Notes under the pieces: generated by a model
Databases searched by the model: none
What the model saw: only the letters and a program-made list of their open reading frames with translations
Told to the model about the DNA's origin: nothing
DNA from: Minisyncoccota bacterium
GTDB lineage: Bacteria > Patescibacteriota > Minisyncoccia > Phycocordibacterales > UBA1006
Direction: 5' to 3'
NCBI GenBank assembly: GCA_022763365.1
Contig: JALEGN010000007.1
Span: forward strand, 24,665 to 88,664
Length of the DNA: 64,000 nucleotides
Position numbers and translations under genes: made by a program
In this document: positions 3,682 through 41,339 of the stretch, one piece after another
How positions within the stretch are numbered: position 1 is the first letter of the stretch
Layout of the letters: every line of letters starts with the position of its first letter

Positions 3682-4728
3682 TTATTCCTCGTTTTCTAAT
3701 TCGTCTTGTTTTTCACGTATTTTCTTTTGGATACGCTGGAAATCTCCTCCTAAAATTCCTTCGATGTTTGACCATGATTCTTTGATGCGATGATCGGTGA
3801 TACGGTCTTGTGGAAAATTATAGGTTCTAATTTTCTCTGACCTATCCCCTGTTCCAATTTGCTTTTTACGTTTATCAGCGTATCTGGCTTGCTCTTCCTC
3901 GTCTTTCATTTGTTGTAATTTTGATTTTAGAATAGACAGAGCGTTTTCTTTGTTTTTAAGTTGCGTTCGTTGAGCTGTTGAACGCACATCGATACCTGTT
4001 GGTTTGTGAATCACACGCACAGCTGTTTCCACTTTGTTAACACTTTGCCCGCCGGCACCACCTGACCGTGACGTTTCAAATTCTAAATCACTATCATTCA
4101 AAACAATGGTTGTTCGTTTAAATAGTGGCATAATAGCAACTGAAATTGTCGAAGTATGAATACGCCCCTGTTTCTCAGTTGCTGGGATACGCTGTACCCG
4201 ATGTACTCCTGTTTCCCATTGTAATTTGTCATAGACTCCTTCACCTTTGACCTCAAAAGATGCTTCTTTGTAGCCACCAATATCATTTTCTGAGCTGTCG
4301 ATAATACTCCAAGTATATCCTTCTGATTCAGCATAACGTTGGTACATTTCAGCCATTTCTTTCGCAAAGAGTGAGGCTTCGTCTCCTCCAGCTCCAGCTC
4401 TGATTTCTAGAACAATTTCAGAAGGTGATTCTTTATCAGCCTCCTCTTCTTTTTTAATAATATCTTCAGCTTGAGTGATATATGCATTAATTGAAATCGT
4501 TAAATTTTTGATTTCATTTTTGGCTAGTTCTGCCATTTCGGGGTCTTCAGCTAACTCTTGTGTTTCTTCGAGCTTTGCCAAAAATTCTTCAATTTGTGAT
4601 GCAAAAAACTGTGTAGAGTGATTATTTCTATATTTTTCTAAGTCGTACTCTAAAATTTCCATAGATACCATATAGCATAGCAAATATTGTAAAATAAAAA
4701 ACCTTGGTATTTCAAGGCTGTAGTCCAC
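3682..4728 (-). CDS. prfA: peptide chain release factor 1
   Basis: PAT tripeptide ([18 protein letters not shown]) and GGQ motif ([18 protein letters not shown]). The true start may be the internal Met (MEILEY..., about 4662), giving an N-terminus shorter than in E. coli RF1. Confidence 0.85.
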
Positions 4729-5308
4729 AAATTCGGTTGGACTGTAATGATTGTTTTCTTATTCTGTTACTGAGGTTCATTATTAAACGATACACAAATA
4801 ATGCATGGTCTTTAGATTGAATTTTATGAACTTTTGTCAGATGTTGTATTTCACTATTGAGGTTAAAGTCTGGGATAAAACTACCACCCATACAGCGACC
4901 TAAACGCAAGTAATACTGTGATGTCCAAGCATCATTTTTGTATACAATATCAAAAGTGTGAAAACTATATTCATAATTCATGTTAAATAACATGACACGT
5001 ACTCCATTTTCAGTTCTTTCAAAAATAAAAATATTTTTGAAAGAATCAATATATTCACTACACTCTTCTTTATTACTGCAGCTTTGCATATGAGGGTTAT
5101 AGAACATAAGGTTCTGTTTATTACCTAATATTCCCAAAAGCCAGTTCGTTGAGAAACGTAAGGATTGCTGTTGATACAAGGTATCATTTGTTACCTGTTC
5201 AAAGTCAAGATTCTGATATTGATTAACATAACTGTTTTCAAAAACATTATTATTTTGAGCATTTAAAGCACAAAAAAATAGATTAAAAATAAGAAATAAG
5301 TTTTTCAT
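4712..5308 (-). CDS. hypothetical secreted protein
   Basis: Signal peptide [18 protein letters not shown] if the start is the internal Met. No known domain. Confidence 0.4.
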
Positions 5309-8102: not shown

Positions 8103-8753
8103 ATGACTGAACTAAAATTTATAAAAAGAGATGCAGAAAAGACATCTCCTGAATTCTTACGTTCACAAGGACTTGTACCAGCCGTATGTTACGGAGCTGG
8201 AAACGAAACAACACTTGTTGCCGTAGAAGACGTTGAATTTAGAAAAGTATACCGAAAAGTAGGTACTTCAGGATTGATCGACATGACTGGAGATGTTTCA
8301 GGAGAACAATGCCTTGTACAAGATATGCAAGTACATGTTGTCAGCGGAGAATTACAACATATTGATTTCAAGTTTGTTGCAAAAGGACAAGCTACTGAAG
8401 TTACGGTACCTGTTGAAATTGTTGGTGAGTCACCGGCTGTTGTTAATAAAGTAGGACTTCTTAATATTTCACGAGATGAACTTGTTATTGAAACAATCCC
8501 AAGTAAAATTCCTGAATCAATTGAGGTTGACGGATCACTTCTTAAGGAAATAGGAGATTCAGTAAAAATTTCTGATCTTAAACTTGATTCTGCTATTGAG
8601 TTTACCGATGACCTTGATACTACTATTGTCAGCATCATCGCACCTCGAGAAGATGAACCAGAAGCTGAAACCGAAGAACCAGTTTCAATGGAACCTGAAC
8701 TTGTTGACCAAAAAGGTAAACAAGAAGACGATTCAGAATCAGAAGAAGCATAA
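8103..8753 (+). CDS. rplY: 50S ribosomal protein L25 / general stress protein Ctc
   Basis: L25 N-domain (LRSQGLVPAVCYGAG...) with an acidic C-terminal tail. The start is placed at MTELKF. Confidence 0.8.
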   Translation: MTELKFIKRDAEKTSPEFLRSQGLVPAVCYGAGNETTLVAVEDVEFRKVYRKVGTSGLIDMTGDVSGEQCLVQDMQVHVVSGELQHIDFKFVAKGQATEVTVPVEIVGESPAVVNKVGLLNISRDELVIETIPSKIPESIEVDGSLLKEIGDSVKISDLKLDSAIEFTDDLDTTIVSIIAPREDEPEAETEEPVSMEPELVDQKGKQEDDSESEEA

Positions 8754-8779
8754 TAAAAAACACCATTTGGTGTTTTTTA
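8754..8779. terminator. bidirectional intrinsic terminator (rplY / pheT convergent)
   Basis: AAAAAACACC-ATTT-GGTGTTTTTT palindrome flanked by A/T tracts. Confidence 0.6.
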
Positions 8780-8780
8780 T

Positions 8781-10688
8781 TTATCGAATAGTTGAATCAT
8801 TATCATCTAATACTTTTTCAATCTTTTTCATTTCAATAAGCACTTCTTCATCGGTAAGTGTTCTTGCGCTTGATTGAAATACTAATGAAAATCCATACGA
8901 TACGTCACCATCTTTTTCAAAGGTATCAAAGCAAAATACTTTTTGTAGCAAATCAGATGATGAGTCTTTAATTAATACTGATAGTTCTGACTTATCTAAT
9001 GATCCATGATGCCAAAACGAGATATCTCGAGTGACATATGGGTATGCTGAAAATTCATGGAAAACGGCATTTGTTCCGTAGCTTGCCCTAGAGAAAATAT
9101 CACCATACTCAGCTTTTGGACCTATGTTAACATCAGCAAGATTAAAGCTTACTGAGTTTTGTTCATAATGAACATCAAACTCGACACCAAAATAATCATA
9201 GAGTTCATGAATACAAGACTCTAAGGCAGCACGTTCAGTTCCATATTTTTTATTTGCTTTCTTGTCTTTGTTTGAAATAGCAATACAACAAATATTTTCT
9301 TCAGAATCTTTGGTATAAACACGCCCTATTTCAAACACACAGATTCTTTCTAAACCAAAATAATCAATATTCTTAGTGTTGTTTTCAAGAGCACCAAGTA
9401 CTCCCTGGTAAAGATTTTTTCGAAGAGCAGACTTATCATTTGCTAAGGCATTTTTAACATAACGATGTCCTTTTTTAACAAAACTATAGGTCTTAATTTC
9501 AGAGAATCCTCGCTCTGTTAAAAAGTTTTTGAGGGTATTTTCTATATAGGTTTCAGTATGAACCGCCGGAGTAAAAGAATACTCATCAAGATGTTTAATA
9601 GGAATATTATGGTATCCATAAATACGACCAATTTCTTCTATTAAATCTTCTGGTGCCAGAAGGTCTAATCTATCAAAAGGTATTGCTACATCATATATTC
9701 CATCTTTAGTAGTATATTGATAATCCAGTTTCGTAAAAATATTTTCAACCTCTAATGGTTCTAAATCAATTCCTAAGAGTGAACAAATATGAATATGCTC
9801 TACATTAACTCGGTGCTCTTCCTCTTTATTTGGATAAACGTCCACCACAACGCCAAGAGATTCAGTAGACATGATATCACTGATTAATCGTGATACTGCC
9901 TCCATAGCTTTAGGAGACAACTCTGAACTAATTTCATTTTCAAAACGTTTCGAAGAATCGGTTAAGATTTTTACTCGCCGTGAAGTTATTCTTGTTGTTG
10001 TTGGATTAAAATTTGCTACTTCAAGAATTATATTTTTAGTTTCTTGAGTAACCTCTGCAGCTTGGCTACCTTTAATGCCAGCTAAAGCAAGAATCTTTTC
10101 TTCATCAGCAATAACCAAATCTTCTTCTTGAAGTTCAATCTCTTCACCACTGAGAGTAATCATTTTTTCCCCTTGTTTTGCATTCCGCACCTGGATATCT
10201 CCTGAAACCTTATCAGCATCAAAAGCATGCATAGGATTTCCGTAATCAAACATCACATAATTTGTTGCATCAACAATGTTATTAATAGTTTTTTGACCAA
10301 TTGATTCTAAACGCTCTTTAAGCCAACTTGGTGAATCAGTAACCTCTACATTATTAATAACACGTGTCATGTAGCGTGAGCATTGATCAGGATTATTAAT
10401 ATGTGCATGTTTTGAACTATCACTGTATTGTATACTGCCGTGGTAATGATAGCGTTCTTTGATATATTCTTTTCCGGTCAAAGCAGCATATTCTCTTGCT
10501 ATTCCTCGATACGACAAACAATCATGTGCACGATTAGGAAGAACATCGATATCAATAATGACATCGTTATCTCTATATTCAATTGCTTCAAGCTCAAAAG
10601 AATGCAACATTAACGTTTCTGCAATTTCTTCTGCATTTGGTAATTCATCTTCAAAATAACTTTGAAGCCAATTTCGTGATACTAACAT
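8781..10688 (-). CDS. pheT: phenylalanine--tRNA ligase beta subunit (shortened form, 635 aa)
   Basis: Canonical PheT N-terminus MLVSRNWLQSYF..., B3/4 and B5 regions and a C-terminal catalytic-like domain. It sits immediately downstream of pheS. Confidence 0.9.
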   Translation of the reverse strand: MLVSRNWLQSYFEDELPNAEEIAETLMLHSFELEAIEYRDNDVIIDIDVLPNRAHDCLSYRGIAREYAALTGKEYIKERYHYHGSIQYSDSSKHAHINNPDQCSRYMTRVINNVEVTDSPSWLKERLESIGQKTINNIVDATNYVMFDYGNPMHAFDADKVSGDIQVRNAKQGEKMITLSGEEIELQEEDLVIADEEKILALAGIKGSQAAEVTQETKNIILEVANFNPTTTRITSRRVKILTDSSKRFENEISSELSPKAMEAVSRLISDIMSTESLGVVVDVYPNKEEEHRVNVEHIHICSLLGIDLEPLEVENIFTKLDYQYTTKDGIYDVAIPFDRLDLLAPEDLIEEIGRIYGYHNIPIKHLDEYSFTPAVHTETYIENTLKNFLTERGFSEIKTYSFVKKGHRYVKNALANDKSALRKNLYQGVLGALENNTKNIDYFGLERICVFEIGRVYTKDSEENICCIAISNKDKKANKKYGTERAALESCIHELYDYFGVEFDVHYEQNSVSFNLADVNIGPKAEYGDIFSRASYGTNAVFHEFSAYPYVTRDISFWHHGSLDKSELSVLIKDSSSDLLQKVFCFDTFEKDGDVSYGFSLVFQSSARTLTDEEVLIEMKKIEKVLDDNDSTIR

Positions 10689-22680: not shown

Positions 22681-24345
22681 TTAAGATTTTAACCCTGCTT
22701 TTAAAAAAGCTGTGAAGATAGGATGAGGATCAAGAGGTCTCGCCTGTAATTCAGGATGAAATTGAACAGCAATGAAAAACGGATGAATCTTTTGATTTAA
22801 TTCTATAATCTCTGGTAACAATCCATCAGGTGACGTTCCAGAAATAATAAAGCCTTTCTTTTCAAACCTTTCTTTGTGTTCATTGATTGTTAATTCATAG
22901 CGATGCCTATGTCGTTCACTAATAACATCAGTTTTGTAAATTTTTCGAGCTAAAGTTCCTCTTTTAAGATGAGCCTTATACGAACCTAATCGCATTGAAC
23001 CCCCATAATCTCCCTTCTTCATTTTTTCTTTTTGTTCAGGAAGAATATCTACAATTGGATAGAAGGTTTTTGGATAGACCTCGGTACTATGTGCATCATT
23101 TAGTTTCAGTACGTTTCGAGCAAACTCAACAGATGCCATTTGCATACCTAAACAAATACCAAAAAACGGAATCTTATTTTTACGTACATACTCAATAACG
23201 TTAATCTTTCCCTCGATACCTGAATTACCAAAACCACCAGGGACGAGTACACCATCATATTTTTTTAATTGTTTTAGATTTTTGTTTTTATCAGAACCTT
23301 CAAAATCTTGAGCTTGGAGCCAATCAATTTTAATTTTTATCTTTAATTGTGCTGCTGAAAATTTTAGAGCTTCAATGACTGATACATAAGCATCAGATAA
23401 TACAAAATCTCCTGTTCCAAAATATTTCCCAACCACAGCAATAGACACTTCATTACTAGATTCTTTTGTATTTTTAACAAAAGTATTCCATGCTTTTTTA
23501 TCAAAATCACCTTTTTTATTTGTTTTCTTTCGTAATTTTAGTTTTTTAAGAAGCTTAATATCTAATTCTTCTTTCAAAAAATATTCTGGTAAATCATAGA
23601 TACTATCTAGATTTGGAGCAGAAATAATATCAGAATCTTCAAGCATCGATGAAGTTGCAATTTTTGACTTACGACGATCATCCATACTTCCAGGACTCCG
23701 TCCAACAATAATATCAGGAAATACCCCAGATTCTTGCAATGTCCGTACTGCCTGTTGAGTAGGTTTTGTCTTCATTTCTCCAAGCGTATTTGGAACAGGT
23801 AAGTACGAAACTAACACAAAAGCAACATCTTCTGAATTTTTGCGTTTCATCATTCGTGCGGCCTCGAGGAATAAAATATTTTCATATTCTCCAACAGTTC
23901 CACCAATTTCAACAATGGTAATATCAGCTTCTTCTTTTTTGGCTGCTTTTTTAATTTGTTCAATCACCGCAAGTGGGACATGAGGAACAACTGATACTGT
24001 TTTACCTTTATATCCGAGTGAGCGTTCTTTATGGATAACTTTTTGATAAATAGAACCTGTCGTCATATAAGATTCACGACATAATGAGGTATTTAAAAAA
24101 CGCTCATAATTTCCCATATCTTGATCAGTTTCGTAGCCATCTTCTAAAACGAAAGTCTCGCCATGTTCAGTCGGATTCATAGTTCCAGCATCGACATTAA
24201 CATACGGATCAATTTTTACTGCTGACACCTTATACCCTGTAAATTGAAGCATTTTTCCTATTGATGAGGCTGTAACACCCTTACCTACACCTGACATCAC
24301 ACCACCTACAACAAATATAAATTTTTGATTTTTTAGTTTTTTCAT
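22681..24345 (-). CDS. pyrG: CTP synthase
   Basis: N-terminal synthetase P-loop (VVGGVMSGVGKG) and C-terminal class I glutamine amidotransferase (GICLGMQ, HPE). Confidence 0.9.
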   Translation of the reverse strand: MKKLKNQKFIFVVGGVMSGVGKGVTASSIGKMLQFTGYKVSAVKIDPYVNVDAGTMNPTEHGETFVLEDGYETDQDMGNYERFLNTSLCRESYMTTGSIYQKVIHKERSLGYKGKTVSVVPHVPLAVIEQIKKAAKKEEADITIVEIGGTVGEYENILFLEAARMMKRKNSEDVAFVLVSYLPVPNTLGEMKTKPTQQAVRTLQESGVFPDIIVGRSPGSMDDRRKSKIATSSMLEDSDIISAPNLDSIYDLPEYFLKEELDIKLLKKLKLRKKTNKKGDFDKKAWNTFVKNTKESSNEVSIAVVGKYFGTGDFVLSDAYVSVIEALKFSAAQLKIKIKIDWLQAQDFEGSDKNKNLKQLKKYDGVLVPGGFGNSGIEGKINVIEYVRKNKIPFFGICLGMQMASVEFARNVLKLNDAHSTEVYPKTFYPIVDILPEQKEKMKKGDYGGSMRLGSYKAHLKRGTLARKIYKTDVISERHRHRYELTINEHKERFEKKGFIISGTSPDGLLPEIIELNQKIHPFFIAVQFHPELQARPLDPHPIFTAFLKAGLKS

Positions 24346-25273: not shown

Positions 25274-26731
25274 ATGAAAAAGCCTGATATCAAAGAAATT
25301 TATAATGCCATGCGAGAGGCTCCAAAGAAAAAAGAAAGGGAGCTTATTGAAAAAGCTTATTCAGTAGCGTTTGAGGCTCACAAACCTCAAAAACGATCTA
25401 GTGGTGAGCCTTATTTCAACCACGTTTTTGCTACGGCAAAAAATTTAGCTGAATATGGACTTGACGCAACAACAATTGCAGCAGGATTTCTTCATGACAC
25501 CATCGAAGATACACCTGTTACCGAAAAAGAAATTCAAGAACAATTTGGTGATGAAATTGTTTTTTTGGTAAACGGTGTAACCAAACTTGGAACCTTAAAA
25601 TACCAAGGACGAAAACGACACGTAGAATCATTACGTAAATTCTTCATTGCAACAGCTGAAGATTATCGTGTTGTTATTATTAAATTAGCTGACCGATTAC
25701 ATAATGTTCAAACACTTGAACACGTAAAACCAGAGAAACAAAAACGAATTGCTTTGGAGACAATTGAAATTTATGCTCCACTGGCCTATCGCCTAGGAAT
25801 GGGACGAATGGTTGGAAAATTGCAAGATGCCGCCTTCCCTTTTGCTTACCCAGAAGAATCAAAAATGGTTGATGAACTCATGCGTCAAAAGAAAAAATTA
25901 AATGAAAAATATCTTGAAAAAGTTTGGCGCACCTTAAAAGCTGAGATGGCAGAACATAAAATCAATGATATTACGACACACCAACGCGTGAAGGGTCGCT
26001 ATAGTCTTTGGAAAAAACTTCAACGGAAAAATATGGATATCGAACAAATGTACGATATTGTTGCCTTGCGTGTTATTGTTCCAAATATTGATGATTGTTA
26101 TCGGGTTTTAGGAATCATTCATTCAAAATGGCGTCCATTACCAGGTCGGATCAAAGACTATATTGCTTTACCAAAAGTTAATGGTTATCAATCACTTCAT
26201 ACCACTATCTTTACTGGTGATGGTGGTATTGCTGAAATTCAAATCAGGACGCAGGCAATGCATGATTTTGCGGAATATGGATTTGCAGCGCATCATATTT
26301 ATAAAGCGCAAAGCACCGATGCGAATGTATCTGAGCGTTATTCACTACATTGGCTTGAACAACTCAAAGAATTACAAAATCTTGAAGAGCAAAAAGATTT
26401 CTTAAAAGATTTCAAAACTGACCTATTTGAAGATCGTATTTTTGTTTTTACTCCTGAAGGTGATGTATTAGATTTACCCAAAGACGCATCAGCTATAGAT
26501 TTTGCCTATACTGTTCATAGTGAAATCGGTAACCAAGCCCAAGCTGCTATTATCAATGGTAAAAACTCAGCTCTTAAAACTATTTTAAAAAGTGGTGACA
26601 TCGTTGAAATTCAAACGAATAAAAAAGGTGTCCCTTCTGCAAAATGGTTAAAATTTGCGAAAACCTCAATTGCTCGAAAACATATTGAAAAACATGCTGA
26701 GGACGGTATCATTGCACGAATATTTAAATAA
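25274..26731 (+). CDS. rel: bifunctional (p)ppGpp synthetase/hydrolase Rel (short form: HD + synthetase + TGS)
   Basis: HD motif FLHDTIEDT, KLADRLHNVQTL, synthetase-domain RxKxxxS-like region (YQSLHTTIF) and a C-terminal TGS domain. The start is placed at MKKPDIKEIY. Confidence 0.85.
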   Translation: MKKPDIKEIYNAMREAPKKKERELIEKAYSVAFEAHKPQKRSSGEPYFNHVFATAKNLAEYGLDATTIAAGFLHDTIEDTPVTEKEIQEQFGDEIVFLVNGVTKLGTLKYQGRKRHVESLRKFFIATAEDYRVVIIKLADRLHNVQTLEHVKPEKQKRIALETIEIYAPLAYRLGMGRMVGKLQDAAFPFAYPEESKMVDELMRQKKKLNEKYLEKVWRTLKAEMAEHKINDITTHQRVKGRYSLWKKLQRKNMDIEQMYDIVALRVIVPNIDDCYRVLGIIHSKWRPLPGRIKDYIALPKVNGYQSLHTTIFTGDGGIAEIQIRTQAMHDFAEYGFAAHHIYKAQSTDANVSERYSLHWLEQLKELQNLEEQKDFLKDFKTDLFEDRIFVFTPEGDVLDLPKDASAIDFAYTVHSEIGNQAQAAIINGKNSALKTILKSGDIVEIQTNKKGVPSAKWLKFAKTSIARKHIEKHAEDGIIARIFK

Positions 26732-26757: not shown

Positions 26758-28257
26758 TTACCCAAATATTTTCCCAAAAAATCCCTTTTTCTTAGGCGCT
26801 GGTTGCGCTTGGTAATATTGTTGATTCTGATAGGTATATTGCCCTCCTGAACTATTTTGCTGCGTGTAATCAGTATTCTGAGGTTCAGGTTGTGCCATGC
26901 CAATAGTCTGCGTTTGGTTGTACCTTACAGATTCTTGATCTTGAGGAGTATAATTTTGATCCTGCCCATAAGCCATATTCGATTCGTAGCTATTCTCTAC
27001 TTTTTGTTGTTGAGTATTATTTGCAGAATATATAGCCTGTTCATTAACTTCATGGTTTACCGAAAACCTTTGAGTTTCTAGTGATTGAGGCTTTCTATCA
27101 TTCAAAGTTTCAGGAATTGAAAAAGCATCTTCTTGTTCAGATTCTAGCTCTGAATGTTGATTTATTTTTTCTAAGGGAGCTTCTATCTCCTCGTGATACT
27201 CTTGAATATCAGTATTTGGTATTTTGTGATATTCAGGAAGTGATTGATGATATTCTTGGACTTCTTTTTGAATATTTTCTTCAGTTTTCGATTCTAAACT
27301 GTGAAAATTAACTCCTGTTGATTGAGATAATTCTTCTTGTTCTTTTTTTGTAGAAATAGTTGGTTGAGATTCAGCGACCTGTAATGGTTTTTTATTCTCT
27401 AAATAACGCTCCATCATGTTTTGCTCATGCTCAACTTTTTTCATAGAACTAAGAATTTCTTCAAGATCTTTGATAGTAAAGTAATCAATAGTAATTTGAC
27501 CACCGTTTTCCTTTGGTTCGATATGGACGCGTGTTCCAAGATTTTCAGAAAGTTTTTTCTCGAAATCTCTGATTCGTGGATCAATTTTAAATTCTTTTTT
27601 ACGAACCTTATCTTGGGCAATATTTCGAGCCACCTTTTCGGCATCACGAACAGACATTTTCTTGACCATGATTTCTTTGTATAAGGTAGTTTGTTCTTCT
27701 GGTCTATCTGAGAGCATCAACAGTGGTCTCGTGTGACCCTCTGTAATCCGACCAGCCATCAAACCTTGTTTAATTTCTTCAGGTAGTGAAAGAAGTCTTA
27801 GTGTGTTTGAAACATATACACGACTCTTTCCCATACGTTTTCCGATTTCAACATGAGTTAAATTGAACTCTTTGTAGAGCTGTTCAAAAGCAAGAGCTCG
27901 ATCAATAGGATTAAGGTCTTCCCGTTGCAGGTTTTCAATAATTGCTAACTCAAGTTTTACCTTATCATCAGTTTCTTTTCTAATGATCACTGGAACCTGA
28001 GCAAGCCCAGCAATTTTAGATGCGCGCAAGCGTCGTTCCCCAGCAATCAATTCATAATGAACATCCATTCCATGATTATCAGGACGTAGTGTTTCTTTAC
28101 GAGTTACCACGAGTGGTTGCAGTACTCCATATTGCCTGATTGAATCAGCTAAATCCTCTAAAGCTTTAGGTTCAAATTCTTTTCGCGGCTGAAAAGGATT
28201 TGGTTTAATCTTCATTGTTTCGACCCAAAAAATAGAATTGTTCTGGTATTCTGACAT
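26758..28257 (-). CDS. parB: ParB/Spo0J-family protein with a long Q/N/Y-rich low-complexity C-terminal extension
   Basis: ParB N-domain (KPNPFQPRKEF, YELIAGERRLRASKIAG) plus HTH. The region from about aa 285 to 499 is compositionally biased (Q, N, Y, E, S, T) with QEYH repeats and ends in KKKGFFGKIFG. Confidence 0.75.
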   Translation of the reverse strand: MSEYQNNSIFWVETMKIKPNPFQPRKEFEPKALEDLADSIRQYGVLQPLVVTRKETLRPDNHGMDVHYELIAGERRLRASKIAGLAQVPVIIRKETDDKVKLELAIIENLQREDLNPIDRALAFEQLYKEFNLTHVEIGKRMGKSRVYVSNTLRLLSLPEEIKQGLMAGRITEGHTRPLLMLSDRPEEQTTLYKEIMVKKMSVRDAEKVARNIAQDKVRKKEFKIDPRIRDFEKKLSENLGTRVHIEPKENGGQITIDYFTIKDLEEILSSMKKVEHEQNMMERYLENKKPLQVAESQPTISTKKEQEELSQSTGVNFHSLESKTEENIQKEVQEYHQSLPEYHKIPNTDIQEYHEEIEAPLEKINQHSELESEQEDAFSIPETLNDRKPQSLETQRFSVNHEVNEQAIYSANNTQQQKVENSYESNMAYGQDQNYTPQDQESVRYNQTQTIGMAQPEPQNTDYTQQNSSGGQYTYQNQQYYQAQPAPKKKGFFGKIFG

Positions 28258-28481: not shown

Positions 28482-28563
28482 GCTGGAGTGGCGGAATTGG
28501 TAGACGCGTGCGACTCAAAATCGCATATCTACGGGTGTGCGGGTTCGATTCCCGCCTCCAGCA
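28482..28563 (+). tRNA. tRNA-Leu (anticodon CAA), type II
   Basis: Acceptor GCTGGAG/CTCCAGC, anticodon stem TGCGA/TCGCA with loop CTCAAAA (CAA), long variable arm, T arm GCGGG-TTCGATT-CCCGC, discriminator A. Confidence 0.85.
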
Positions 28564-28650
28564 CTTTGTTTTTAAAACTAAAATCGCACTACAAGAGTAT
28601 TTCCATTTTATATTCGCAGAAGCTCATTAAAAATTAGGTCACAGCTCTTC

Positions 28651-28880: not shown

Positions 28881-29261
28881 ATGGAAGAAATTTTAAGTTT
28901 ACTTTATTTTGTTATTGCAATTATTATTATTGCGTCAATGTGGAAAGTTTTTACCAAAGCAGGACGTCCTGGTTGGGAAGCAATTATCCCAATCTACAAC
29001 CTTTATATTATTCAAAAATTAATTAAAAAACCTTGGTGGTGGATTCTCCTGATGTTCATTCCGTGGCTTGGACTTATTTGGACTATTTGGTCAACAAATT
29101 TACTTGCAAAAAGTTTTGGTAAAACTGAAGGATTCACAGCTGGTATGATTCTATTACCTTTTGTATTCTATCCCATCTTAGGGTTTGGTAATGCACGGTA
29201 TACAGAACCACAATCAAATTCTCATGAATCAATATTAGAAGCTGAAATTATTGAAGAATAA
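28881..29261 (+). CDS. small polytopic membrane protein (DUF5684-like)
   Basis: KAGRPGWEAIIPIYN...KKPWWWILL...GFGNARY pattern recalled for DUF5684 proteins. Confidence 0.45.
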   Translation: MEEILSLLYFVIAIIIIASMWKVFTKAGRPGWEAIIPIYNLYIIQKLIKKPWWWILLMFIPWLGLIWTIWSTNLLAKSFGKTEGFTAGMILLPFVFYPILGFGNARYTEPQSNSHESILEAEIIEE

Positions 29262-29290
29262 AAAAAACACCAATATGGTGTTTTTTTATT
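29259..29290. terminator. bidirectional intrinsic terminator
   Basis: AAAAAAAACACC-AATAT-GGTGTTTTTTT. Confidence 0.6.
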
Positions 29291-29994
29291 TATTCTTCTG
29301 TTTCAGATTGGTCTCCTTCAAGAACTTCTTCAACTTCAATTTCAATTTCACTATCTGATTCGTCGCTTTCTTCAGTATCAACAAGAGTTCGATACAGACG
29401 AGCGTAAAGAATCGCTGTCATTGGAATTGTAATAACTAACCCAATAACGAGTGCCAATAATCCAAAGAGATTAAAGAATGCAACTACAATCATGAACCAA
29501 AGGATTTTCCATGCATTTCCTTTCGTTGCGTTCCAGCTAATTTTTAATGATTCAAAAATACCTGCTTTTTCTTCTGCAGCAATATATTGAGCAAAGACTA
29601 ATCCGATAGTTAGTACAATCCCTGGAATAATGAACAATAGTGTTCCAAGGCCAATCAACGCTGATGTAAGCAATGAAACAACCACGAATGAAAGAAAATG
29701 TGTCCATGAATGTGCTCCATGGAATAATTGTTCGATTTTTGCTTCTTTATTATCTACAACATTAAGAACAAATTTAATATATCCGAGAGTAATGAAAATT
29801 TGGAGTAGCCATGCAAGAATTCCAACAATTGGTGACTGAGAAACATATCCTTCAGGACTCACACTTACTCCTAGATTTCCTAAGAATCCAACAAGGAGGA
29901 AAATAATTCCTACTAAAATGAATAATGTCCAATGTTTTTTATAATCAACCCATGAATCTTTAAAGAGTTGATTAATGCTAAATGTTTTTTTCAT
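29290..29994 (-). CDS. polytopic membrane protein with an acidic C-terminal tail, hypothetical
   Basis: Five or six predicted TM helices and a C-terminal DTEESDESDSEIEIEVEE tail. Confidence 0.4.
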   Translation of the reverse strand: MKKTFSINQLFKDSWVDYKKHWTLFILVGIIFLLVGFLGNLGVSVSPEGYVSQSPIVGILAWLLQIFITLGYIKFVLNVVDNKEAKIEQLFHGAHSWTHFLSFVVVSLLTSALIGLGTLLFIIPGIVLTIGLVFAQYIAAEEKAGIFESLKISWNATKGNAWKILWFMIVVAFFNLFGLLALVIGLVITIPMTAILYARLYRTLVDTEESDESDSEIEIEVEEVLEGDQSETEE

Positions 29995-40418: not shown

Positions 40419-41339
40419 TATTTTCAAATATTTTTTCGTTGCAATACGTGATGAAATAATTCCGATCAACATACCAACCGTTACGAGAATTATAAATATC
40501 GGTAGTATATTTCCAGCATAGTAGCTGGCAATATCCATACCGCCAAAGAATGAGCTGGTGTAATTCCCTATCCATCTGGTCATTGGATAAAGTACGAGCA
40601 TCGTAAGGATTGCTGACACAAGCCCATACATACCTCCCATAACCAGAAAGGGTCCACGAACATATCGATGTTCTGCCCCTACCAGACGTTTAATTCGAAT
40701 CTCTTTTTTAGCTGCAAAAATTGCAATACGCATCGTTGAAAGAATAACCAGTAAAGCAACAACACTAAAGAATACGACAACAGCATATCCAATCAATCTA
40801 ACAACTCCCGTAAATTGATTTAAGCGTTCGATAATCGTTTTATTATCGTAGTAATTAATTCGTTCAACAAAATCTGAATTCGTCACGACAGGCTCTGACT
40901 CAATAGCTGCAATCACTGCCTCGTATTGCGTTGATTCAAATGCTCGAATATTTAATGAGGCTCCAAGAGGGTTATCACCTAATTCTTCAAGTGACCGTGT
41001 GATCAAATCATCATTTCTGTGGCGTTCTTGAAAATCTAGGAACGCTTGTTCACGTGAAATATATTGCACATCTCGAATTTCAGGAACGAGTTGAAGTTTA
41101 CTCTGCAAGGTTAATATCTCAGTTTCTGGGACATCAGGGAAGAAATAAATATTTACATCTACCCTGTCTTGTAATTGAACTAATGAGAAATCAAGAACGG
41201 CATTCATAAATAACAGTGAACTCATCACGACCATTGCCATGGTCATTACCATAATTGTTGAAAATGATACTAGTTTATTTCGCCAAAAATTTATTAATCC
41301 TTCTCTGAGGATTCTTTGTATATCTAATCGAAGTGACAT
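40416..41339 (-). CDS. ftsX: cell-division ABC transporter permease FtsX
   Basis: Four-TM FtsX topology with a large extracytoplasmic loop. The start MSLRLDIQRIL lies 4 nt downstream of the ftsE stop. Confidence 0.75.
   Translation of the reverse strand: MSLRLDIQRILREGLINFWRNKLVSFSTIMVMTMAMVVMSSLLFMNAVLDFSLVQLQDRVDVNIYFFPDVPETEILTLQSKLQLVPEIRDVQYISREQAFLDFQERHRNDDLITRSLEELGDNPLGASLNIRAFESTQYEAVIAAIESEPVVTNSDFVERINYYDNKTIIERLNQFTGVVRLIGYAVVVFFSVVALLVILSTMRIAIFAAKKEIRIKRLVGAEHRYVRGPFLVMGGMYGLVSAILTMLVLYPMTRWIGNYTSSFFGGMDIASYYAGNILPIFIILVTVGMLIGIISSRIATKKYLKI

Follow-up and report, generated by a model that had tools for sequence, protein, structure and literature searches.

A tailed ParB of Patescibacteria with a predicted C-terminal membrane-targeting sequence and no recognizable N-terminal ParA-binding motif

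Canonical chromosomal ParB (Spo0J) proteins of ParABS systems carry a ParA-binding motif, aliphatic residues around a central arginine or lysine, in an unstructured N-terminal region of ~20–40 residues, and deletion of this motif abolishes the interaction with ParA (PMC12462528). Links between DNA and the membrane have been described for other proteins. RocS of Streptococcus pneumoniae and RicO of Staphylococcus aureus, the origin- or chromosome-to-membrane tethers of cocci without ParA, join a small MerR-type helix-turn-helix (HTH) and a coiled coil to a C-terminal MinD-like amphipathic helix; both are separate proteins, and RocS interacts with ParB. Noc of Bacillus and Staphylococcus is itself a ParB-family CTPase with a weak amphipathic helix (residues 1–15; PMC4331003), which takes the position of the ParA-binding peptide at the N-terminus, is set free when CTP binds and brings DNA to the membrane only when the protein is assembled on DNA. 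Here we describe a parB gene in a stretch of 64,000 nucleotides (hereafter the window) from a Minisyncoccota bacterium (GenBank assembly GCA_022763365.1, contig JALEGN010000007.1, positions 24,665 to 88,664 of the forward strand), whose 499-residue product appears to end in a membrane-targeting sequence (MTS) of the MinD/RocS type.

The window ParB shares its three domains, CTP motifs and parS-type residues with canonical ParB/Spo0J, but is without the ParA-binding peptide, lies outside a parAB operon with no parS nearby and bears a C-terminal tail of ~215 residues. With RocS and RicO it has in common the combination of a DNA-binding module, an oligomerization element and a C-terminal MinD-like helix; however, ParB itself bears the helix, at the end of a linker of ~200 residues that is predicted to be disordered, the core is non-homologous (ParB fold) and the organism belongs to another phylum. 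The MerR winged HTH and coiled-coil core of the RocS/RicO/RacA type is absent from the window ParB, which resembles these proteins functionally and in the terminal helix only. What is new is a ParB that apparently carries its own anchor of the MinD/RocS type and that has, in a coordinated change, lost its interface with ParA; both features are conserved across a subclade of the Patescibacteria.

The C-terminal motif and the tail that carries it

The protein terminates in PKKKGFFGKIFG. The homolog set consisted of the 120 closest database relatives listed, all of which are ParBs that extend past the dimerization domain (323–682 amino acids in total); few of their organisms are named, and those are almost all Patescibacteria. 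In 50 of the 120, including the window ParB (47 distinct sequences), a Q/Y/P-rich stretch is followed by P-K-K-K-G-F-F-G-[RK]-[LI]-F-G, always 0–2 residues from the end, which we call the class A ending. Across the columns of its consensus K-K-K-G-F-F-G-[RK]-[LI]-F-G, the 47 distinct sequences contain K34/R7/Q6, K44, K38, G33/S11, F41, F31/L13, G29, R24/K19, L30/I11, F46 and G31/S10, while the tails ahead of the motif run from 115 to 417 residues and are otherwise unalignable. The ending is kept at the extreme C-terminus of tails that vary widely in length and sequence, and so cannot be put down to chance. As a control, the regular expression for the C-terminus was run over ~1.3 Mb (the window and the fetched loci), where it matched only ParB open reading frames (ORFs) and, loosely, two short spurious ORFs.

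The C-terminus of Escherichia coli MinD, translated from MG1655, reads ...EEEKKGFLKRLFGG and ends in KKGFLKRLFGG. It shares the extreme C-terminal position and the pattern of KKKGFFG[RK]LFG; the family consensus KKGFFGRLFG is identical to it at 8 of 10 positions, with the same i, i+1, i+4, i+5 spacing of hydrophobic residues. The RocS MTS has been examined as a synthetic peptide, AKEEVQATKKGFFARLFGGK, which binds bilayers as a kink-helix by solid-state nuclear magnetic resonance (PMC13042908). Two of the relatives, P0042 and P0044, end in PKKKGFFARLFG, in which KKGFFARLFG is identical to the RocS core at all 10 positions; the window sequence KKGFFGKIFG differs from it at 3 of 10. The terminal 11-mer of the window ParB has a hydrophobic moment (μH) of 0.40 and a net charge of +4, and the value of μH for E. 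coli MinD is 0.424 (PMC13042908). In an AlphaFold2 model computed from an alignment of 47 sequences, a short helix was predicted at residues 493–497, and the last ten residues (490–499) had a mean predicted local distance difference test (pLDDT) score of ~68. By these comparisons the terminal motif appears to be an MTS of the MinD/RocS type, and its identity to RocS and MinD makes membrane binding by the segment plausible. One relative, P0060, ends in ...SDFLKRFLGGDT; as this resembles GFLKRLFGG of E. coli MinD more closely than it does the family consensus, the putative anchor seems to tolerate MinD-like variation.

The tail ahead of the motif is acidic and Q/N/Y-rich, with a net charge of −19 over residues 276–499, and contains the run QQNSSGGQYTYQNQQYYQAQ. 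Glutamine and asparagine together make up 23% of residues 276–499 and 35% of residues 400–488, compared with a mean of 9% for the window (64 ORFs of at least 100 residues), and the most Q/N-rich 80-residue stretch among these ORFs lies in the ParB tail; the residues ILVFMW account for 9% of positions 400–488. The tail is predicted to be disordered, as residues 321–486 have pLDDT scores of ~36–40 and no secondary structure in the AlphaFold2 model, with a weak helix at residues 304–314. The runner-up Q/N-rich 80-residue stretch of the window (30%) is the N-terminus of a 198-residue ORF at 4712–5308 on the minus strand.

Related endings and the ParA interface

Two other endings occur among the 120 relatives: class B (52–54 proteins, by the pattern used), with a shorter acidic tail ending in ...DLYNI[NK]NF[ST][ILV], and class C (4 proteins), with ...DPYLEPI[ST]DED.... 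A neighbor-joining tree of the ParB core domains was rooted with canonical ParBs. All class A proteins fell in one clade, which holds 50 class A and 4 class C proteins, 11 with variant or truncated endings and none of class B; below it, class B forms a paraphyletic grade. Because a single MTS clade is nested above the class B grade, the lipid-type ending was gained once, within a lineage that already bore a tail. In class B (homologs P0065–P0120; loci L004–L061 and L074), the terminal acidic run and motif are preceded by a conserved EPEM...MLDDRS island, and ~50 of the 62 clade loci described below, which come from GTDB species representatives, have this ending. Since the class B terminus is acidic, it would not be expected to bind lipid, and it looks like a docking peptide for a partner.

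Homolog tails cannot be aligned as wholes but share conserved islands: MM[DE]xY[LI], where the C-domain helix ends, [ST]T[GA][IV]xF, and [LM]LDDR, which corresponds to ETLNDRK in the window. The EYH repeats of the window tail belong to a conserved short linear motif, LPEY[HQ] / EYHxEIxAP, which occurs in one to three copies in class A and class B tails and keeps a constant order relative to the LDDR island in both. An island of the form [FY][IL][ST]GNPY[KQ] is found in some tails. The motif DPY[LR]E[PD]I[ST][DN]E is terminal in P0028, P0032, P0034 and P0036, which are nested in the class A clade, and internal in the class A tails of P0005, P0024, P0025, P0046 and P0048. The sequence AIYSANNT, which follows ETLNDRK in the window, was considered as an internal remnant of the class B terminal motif and dropped, as it is absent from other class A tails.

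Loci were compared using 80 from a scan of one genome per GTDB species and 3 others, which divided into 62 clade loci (core identity of at least 54%) and 21 outgroup loci (40–47%). The clade loci carry labels such as Paceibacterota, Parcubacteria, Nomurabacteria, Yonathbacteria, Kaiserbacteria and Wolfebacteria, while the outgroup comes from other phyla and, within Patescibacteria, from Saccharimonadia, Liptonbacteria and Moraniibacteria. An N-terminal LG[RK]GL motif was found in 0 of 62 clade loci vs 18 of 21 outgroup loci, and the tail past the dimerization domain measured 27–498 residues in the clade vs 1–11 in the outgroup. The ParA Walker A motif (KGGxGK[ST]) was absent from all 62 clade loci (up to 10 kb on each side); parA lies upstream on the same strand in 20 of the 21 outgroup loci, ~0.8–1.5 kb away in 19 of them. 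Canonical parS (TGTTTCACGTGAAACA, at most 1 mismatch) was likewise found at none of the clade loci and stands beside parAB in six outgroup loci (L066, L070, L073, L075, L078 and L083), with three perfect copies ~37 bp apart in L078. Three changes, namely the loss of the ParA-binding peptide, the loss of adjacency to parA and parS and the gain of a C-terminal tail, co-occur in the clade and are absent from the outgroup. In the clade, parB appears to have moved off the centromere, or the centromere to have diverged.

The window ParB follows the same pattern. Only ~14 residues, MSEYQNNSIFWVET, none of them basic, stand ahead of the first position that can be aligned to solved ParB structures; in the PDB alignments, residue 15 pairs with position 29 of the Thermus Spo0J chain and residue 17 with position 42 of the chain of Caulobacter ParB. 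No alternative upstream start is available to parB, as the in-frame stop-to-stop extension comprises 11 codons and has no start codon, and all 120 homologs listed have the same kind of beginning. It thus seems that the window ParB has lost the N-terminal peptide that binds and activates ParA and that it still belongs to the chromosomal ParB family, though without this one functional hallmark; its core is 40–47% identical to the outgroup ParBs, which lie in parAB operons. A ParA-type Walker A motif (KGGxGK[ST]) had no match in any frame of the 64-kb window. The search of the window for canonical parS returned a single match, with 3 mismatches at 41046, and this is no better than chance (reached in 47 of 100 shuffles).

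The ParB core and its genomic surroundings

The features of the gene and its product are collected in Table 1. In addition to the motifs given there, Q47 of GVLQPL (GxLQPL motif) is invariant in the 47 homologs. The protein passed the general ParB model TIGR00180 (173 bits vs a cut-off of 58.45) and failed the Noc model TIGR04285 (203 bits vs 315), and its best PDB matches were Thermus Spo0J, Bacillus subtilis Spo0J and Caulobacter ParB. Specificity for parS or for Noc-binding sites (NBS) has been assigned to four positions, R173, T179, A184 and G201 in Caulobacter ParB and Q173, K179, K184 and R201 in Noc, and parS-specific proteins were found to have the pattern RxxG (PMC7383237). Mapped through the PDB alignment, the window ParB has R146, T152, S157 and G174 at these positions, the parS-type RxxG. 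Most ten-residue blocks of the AlphaFold2 model average pLDDT scores of 85–98 within residues 11–210, and the last helix of the dimerization domain is predicted to run to about residue 289. Because it has three domains, nucleotide-binding motifs and RxxG specificity residues, the core is that of an ordinary chromosomal ParB of the parS type and is complete before the tail begins; its conserved motifs suggest CTPase activity and parS binding.

Table 1. Positions of the parB gene and of features of its product in the window
Feature	Residues	Position	Strand	Details
parB, whole gene		26758..28257	−	499 codons and stop; single uninterrupted ORF
Short N-terminus MSEYQNNSIFWV	1–12	28222..28257	−	No K/R; without the LG[RK]GL ParA-binding motif
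ParB N-terminal domain (putative CTPase)	13–111	27925..28221	−	PF02195, 96.5 bits, E 1e-27
GERRLRA	73–79	28021–28041	−	Invariant in 47 homologs
ENLQRE	108–113	27919–27936	−	Straddles the N-domain/HTH boundary; invariant in 47 homologs
ParB HTH DNA-binding domain	113–213	27619..27921	−	PF17762, 108.5 bits, E 2e-31
ParB C-terminal dimerization domain	226–271	27445..27582	−	PF23552, 40.9 bits, E 1.4e-10
MMERYL		27400–27417	−	Conserved; in the last helix of the dimerization domain
Acidic linker, predicted disordered	287–488	26794..27399	−	AlphaFold2, composition, homolog comparison
STGVNF island		27304–27321	−	Conserved in tails
LPEYH/EYHxEIxAP block	332–361	27175–27264	−	Three EYH within EVQEYHQSLPEYHKIPNTDIQEYHEEIEAP
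ETLNDRK island		27091–27111	−	Conserved in tails
Q/N/Y-rich stretch	413–488	26794–27021	−	
Predicted membrane-targeting amphipathic helix KKKGFFGKIFG	489–499	26761..26793	−	Extreme C-terminus; preceded by Pro

The parB product is 100% identical to an NCBI entry named 'ParB/RepB/Spo0J family partition protein [Candidatus Pacebacteria bacterium]'. The gene forms its own transcription unit, convergent with a Rel/SpoT-type gene (plus strand, ending at 26731) and divergent from a tRNA-Leu gene (28482–28564, plus strand), and alternative frames across it hold ORFs of 74–87 residues at most. As it is the sole ParB of the window (one ORF contains GERRxRA) and the order LysRS, DUF975-like membrane protein, DUF5684, ParB and Rel is conserved in relatives, it looks like the ParB ortholog of its clade.

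An earlier note on this DNA, made from the letters and a list of ORFs, had centered on 26758–27405, which corresponds to the stop codon and residues 285–499 of the parB product. Its account of a standard ParB N-domain followed by an HTH agrees with the Pfam matches, although the third domain, that of C-terminal dimerization, had been overlooked, and each of the sequence features that it quoted (GERRLRA, the EYH repeats, the run in the tail and the terminal KKKGFFGKIFG) is present in the ORF. The biased Q/N/Y-rich tail of ~215 residues that it described is upheld by composition and by the disorder predicted with AlphaFold2, its remark that the basic-hydrophobic end could bind membrane is plausible given the likeness to MinD/RocS-type sequences, and its statement that no parA is adjacent holds throughout the window. 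Conservation of the tail in homologs, which it had proposed to check, extends to the terminal motif and the islands and does not include length or bulk sequence. The designation as a paralog is not supported, given that the gene encodes the sole ParB in the window and lies in conserved synteny.

Two small membrane-protein genes, one for a DUF5684 member and one for a DUF975/DUF7847-like protein, lie immediately upstream of parB (28881–29994 in the window; 8439–9705 in locus L001); in locus L002 (5986–7202), a DUF975-like gene and then an unannotated 142-residue ORF stand between LysRS and ParB. The CTP synthase gene pyrG is found 2.4 kb from parB, whose product is expected to be CTP-dependent (22681–24345, minus strand, in the window; 14185–15903 in L001). 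A functional link between ParB and pyrG was considered and dropped, since this proximity occurs in 2 of the 62 clade loci only and is probably coincidence.

A proposed membrane tether and its alternatives

We consider it reasonably probable, from the sequence comparisons, that this ParB tethers its DNA complexes directly to the membrane, as a single-polypeptide analogue of ParB plus RocS or of Noc. Given GERRxRA, ENLQRE, the parS-type residues and the dimerization domain, the core would load at parS as a CTP-dependent dimeric clamp, each subunit of which would carry an acidic, disordered linker of ~200 residues capped by a basic, MinD/RocS-type amphipathic helix of 11 residues. A single helix would bind anionic membrane weakly; a dimer would offer two and a parS-nucleated assembly many. 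Because the weak helix of Noc requires nucleoprotein assembly (PMC4331003) and the MTS of E. coli MinD requires dimerization, such avidity may be what makes the partition complex, and not free ParB, stick to the cytoplasmic membrane. As for MinD, two or more copies would be expected to be needed for stable binding; however, MinD bears its MTS on a ParA/MinD ATPase with ATP-dependent dimerization, whereas the helix considered here would sit on a ParB clamp that is a constitutive dimer through its C-domain. The acidic linker could serve as a flexible spacer repelled by DNA and by anionic lipid. The anchor is far from the CTP-binding N-domain, unlike that of Noc, and CTP gating would be less likely. 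Origin-proximal DNA held on the membrane might move apart as the envelope grows and the cell divides, or be held away from the septum, without a ParA gradient; more speculatively, segregation would proceed by membrane attachment, envelope growth and division and SMC, as proposed for RocS/RicO in ParA-less cocci. Membrane binding, avidity gating, ParA independence and the activity as a CTP/parS clamp are steps that we infer.

Several points weigh against a direct tether. The terminal 11-mer ranks 97th of the 489 11-mers of the protein by μH, so amphipathicity alone is not discriminating; since μH is not an outlier, the case is built on identity to characterized MTSs, on the strict terminal position and on conservation beside a free-running tail. 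The confidence of AlphaFold2 for the terminal helix is modest (pLDDT ~68), and membrane binding is ascribed to this particular sequence by comparison with others. The acidic ending of the class B sisters means that the ancestral role of the tail was probably protein binding and not membrane binding. A gene for ParA, Soj or MinD may lie in another part of the genome, the reach of the searches being the 64-kb window and flanks of up to 10 kb per side, and with no parS in the 64-kb window no DNA target could be placed relative to oriC. Finally, ParA-binding motifs are short aliphatic stretches with a central arginine or lysine (PMC12462528), and the class A motif shares this basic and hydrophobic character.

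The last point also favors a different explanation, in which the terminal KKKGFFGKLFG is a relocated ATPase-interaction peptide for a ParA/MinD-family ATPase encoded elsewhere, segregation is still driven by ParA and the contact has shifted from the N- to the C-terminus; the coincidence of N-terminal peptide loss with tail gain would fit as well. We regard this as unlikely, because the spacing and residues match the helices of MinD (8 of 10) and RocS (10 of 10) and not LG[RK]GLxALL, the triple-lysine cluster ahead of the helix is typical of lipid-headgroup binding and a ParA Walker A motif is found neither in the window nor at the 62 clade loci. Quite unlikely, too, is a mainly prion-like tail whose Q/N/Y region would drive phase separation of ParB-DNA complexes, with the terminal motif secondary. 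Among the window ORFs of at least 100 residues, none surpasses the glutamine and asparagine content of residues 400–488, this region is predicted to be disordered and most class A homologs have a Q/Y/P-rich stretch ahead of the motif. However, the rest of the tail has a strong acidic charge (net −19) and little conservation, lengths differ 3–4-fold among tails and Q/N/Y content is variable; the terminal helix is the only strictly conserved element, and the tails of class B relatives are short and acidic and show no Q/N/Y enrichment. We do not adopt the condensate association suggested in the earlier note, which is an argument from composition.

The same note had called the protein Noc-like, and a nucleoid-occlusion factor of the Noc type would bind many chromosomal sites, recruit them to the membrane and block division over the nucleoid. 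The combination of a ParB fold with an amphipathic helix follows the logic of Noc, which is also the top NCBIfam model by bits. As family membership this does not hold, and we give such a role a very low probability: the score of 203 bits is below the cut-off of 315, the putative helix is C-terminal on a 200-residue linker and not N-terminal and CTP-gated, the N-terminus (MSEYQNNSIFWVE) has no basic residues and is not a Noc-type amphipathic helix, the specificity residues are of the parS-type RxxG (R/T/S/G) and not the QKKR with which Noc binds NBS, the gene is the sole ParB of the window and in conserved synteny, and Noc is confined to Firmicutes (PMC7383237). It is scarcely conceivable that the tail is an artefact, whether because a frameshift or faulty assembly joined parB to an ORF downstream of it or because the low-complexity part is untranslated read-through. 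Mis-assembly does often yield low-complexity tails, but this architecture and its terminal motif recur in ~60 distinct proteins whose assemblies (NCBI, JGI, ENA and Logan) are independent, the motif is kept at the amino-acid level across sequences that are 50–90% divergent, and there are no competing ORFs. The fusion that the earlier note had named as a possible refutation can thus be set aside; nor do relatives stop at ~290 residues with a separate ORF following, as in the clade the tail belongs to the ParB ORF.

No paper on a ParB with a C-terminal MTS was found in the library searched, which is incomplete. The words 'amphipathic' and 'Patescibacteria' are absent from a 2025 survey of ParB-fold domain fusions, and the search for literature on the ParA and cell-division gene content of the Candidate Phyla Radiation (CPR) or Parcubacteria returned nothing relevant besides Noc, RocS and RicO.

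The CPR/Patescibacteria are uncultured and ultra-small and make up a large share of bacterial diversity, and to our knowledge almost nothing is known about their cell cycle. How chromosomes are segregated in bacteria without ParA is an open question that has been tackled only recently, in cocci (RocS, RicO). It is possible, though rather doubtful, that a large clade of the Paceibacteria type has given up ParA-driven segregation and that the tail attaches the origin to the envelope, directly in class A or, in class B, through the acidic peptide DLYNINNFTI docking on a partner. The C-terminal extensions of these ParBs, built as strings of short linear motifs, offer a resource for finding new ParB partners. 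A ParB with its own anchor would be a one-protein link between centromere and membrane, a reading that gains support because the ParA-binding peptide and the parAB-parS operon were lost together. If the clade has indeed given up ParA in favor of envelope attachment, these ultra-small cells would have a minimal, Jacob-style form of segregation by membrane attachment, and ParB itself would have arrived independently at the RocS/RicO/Noc solution.

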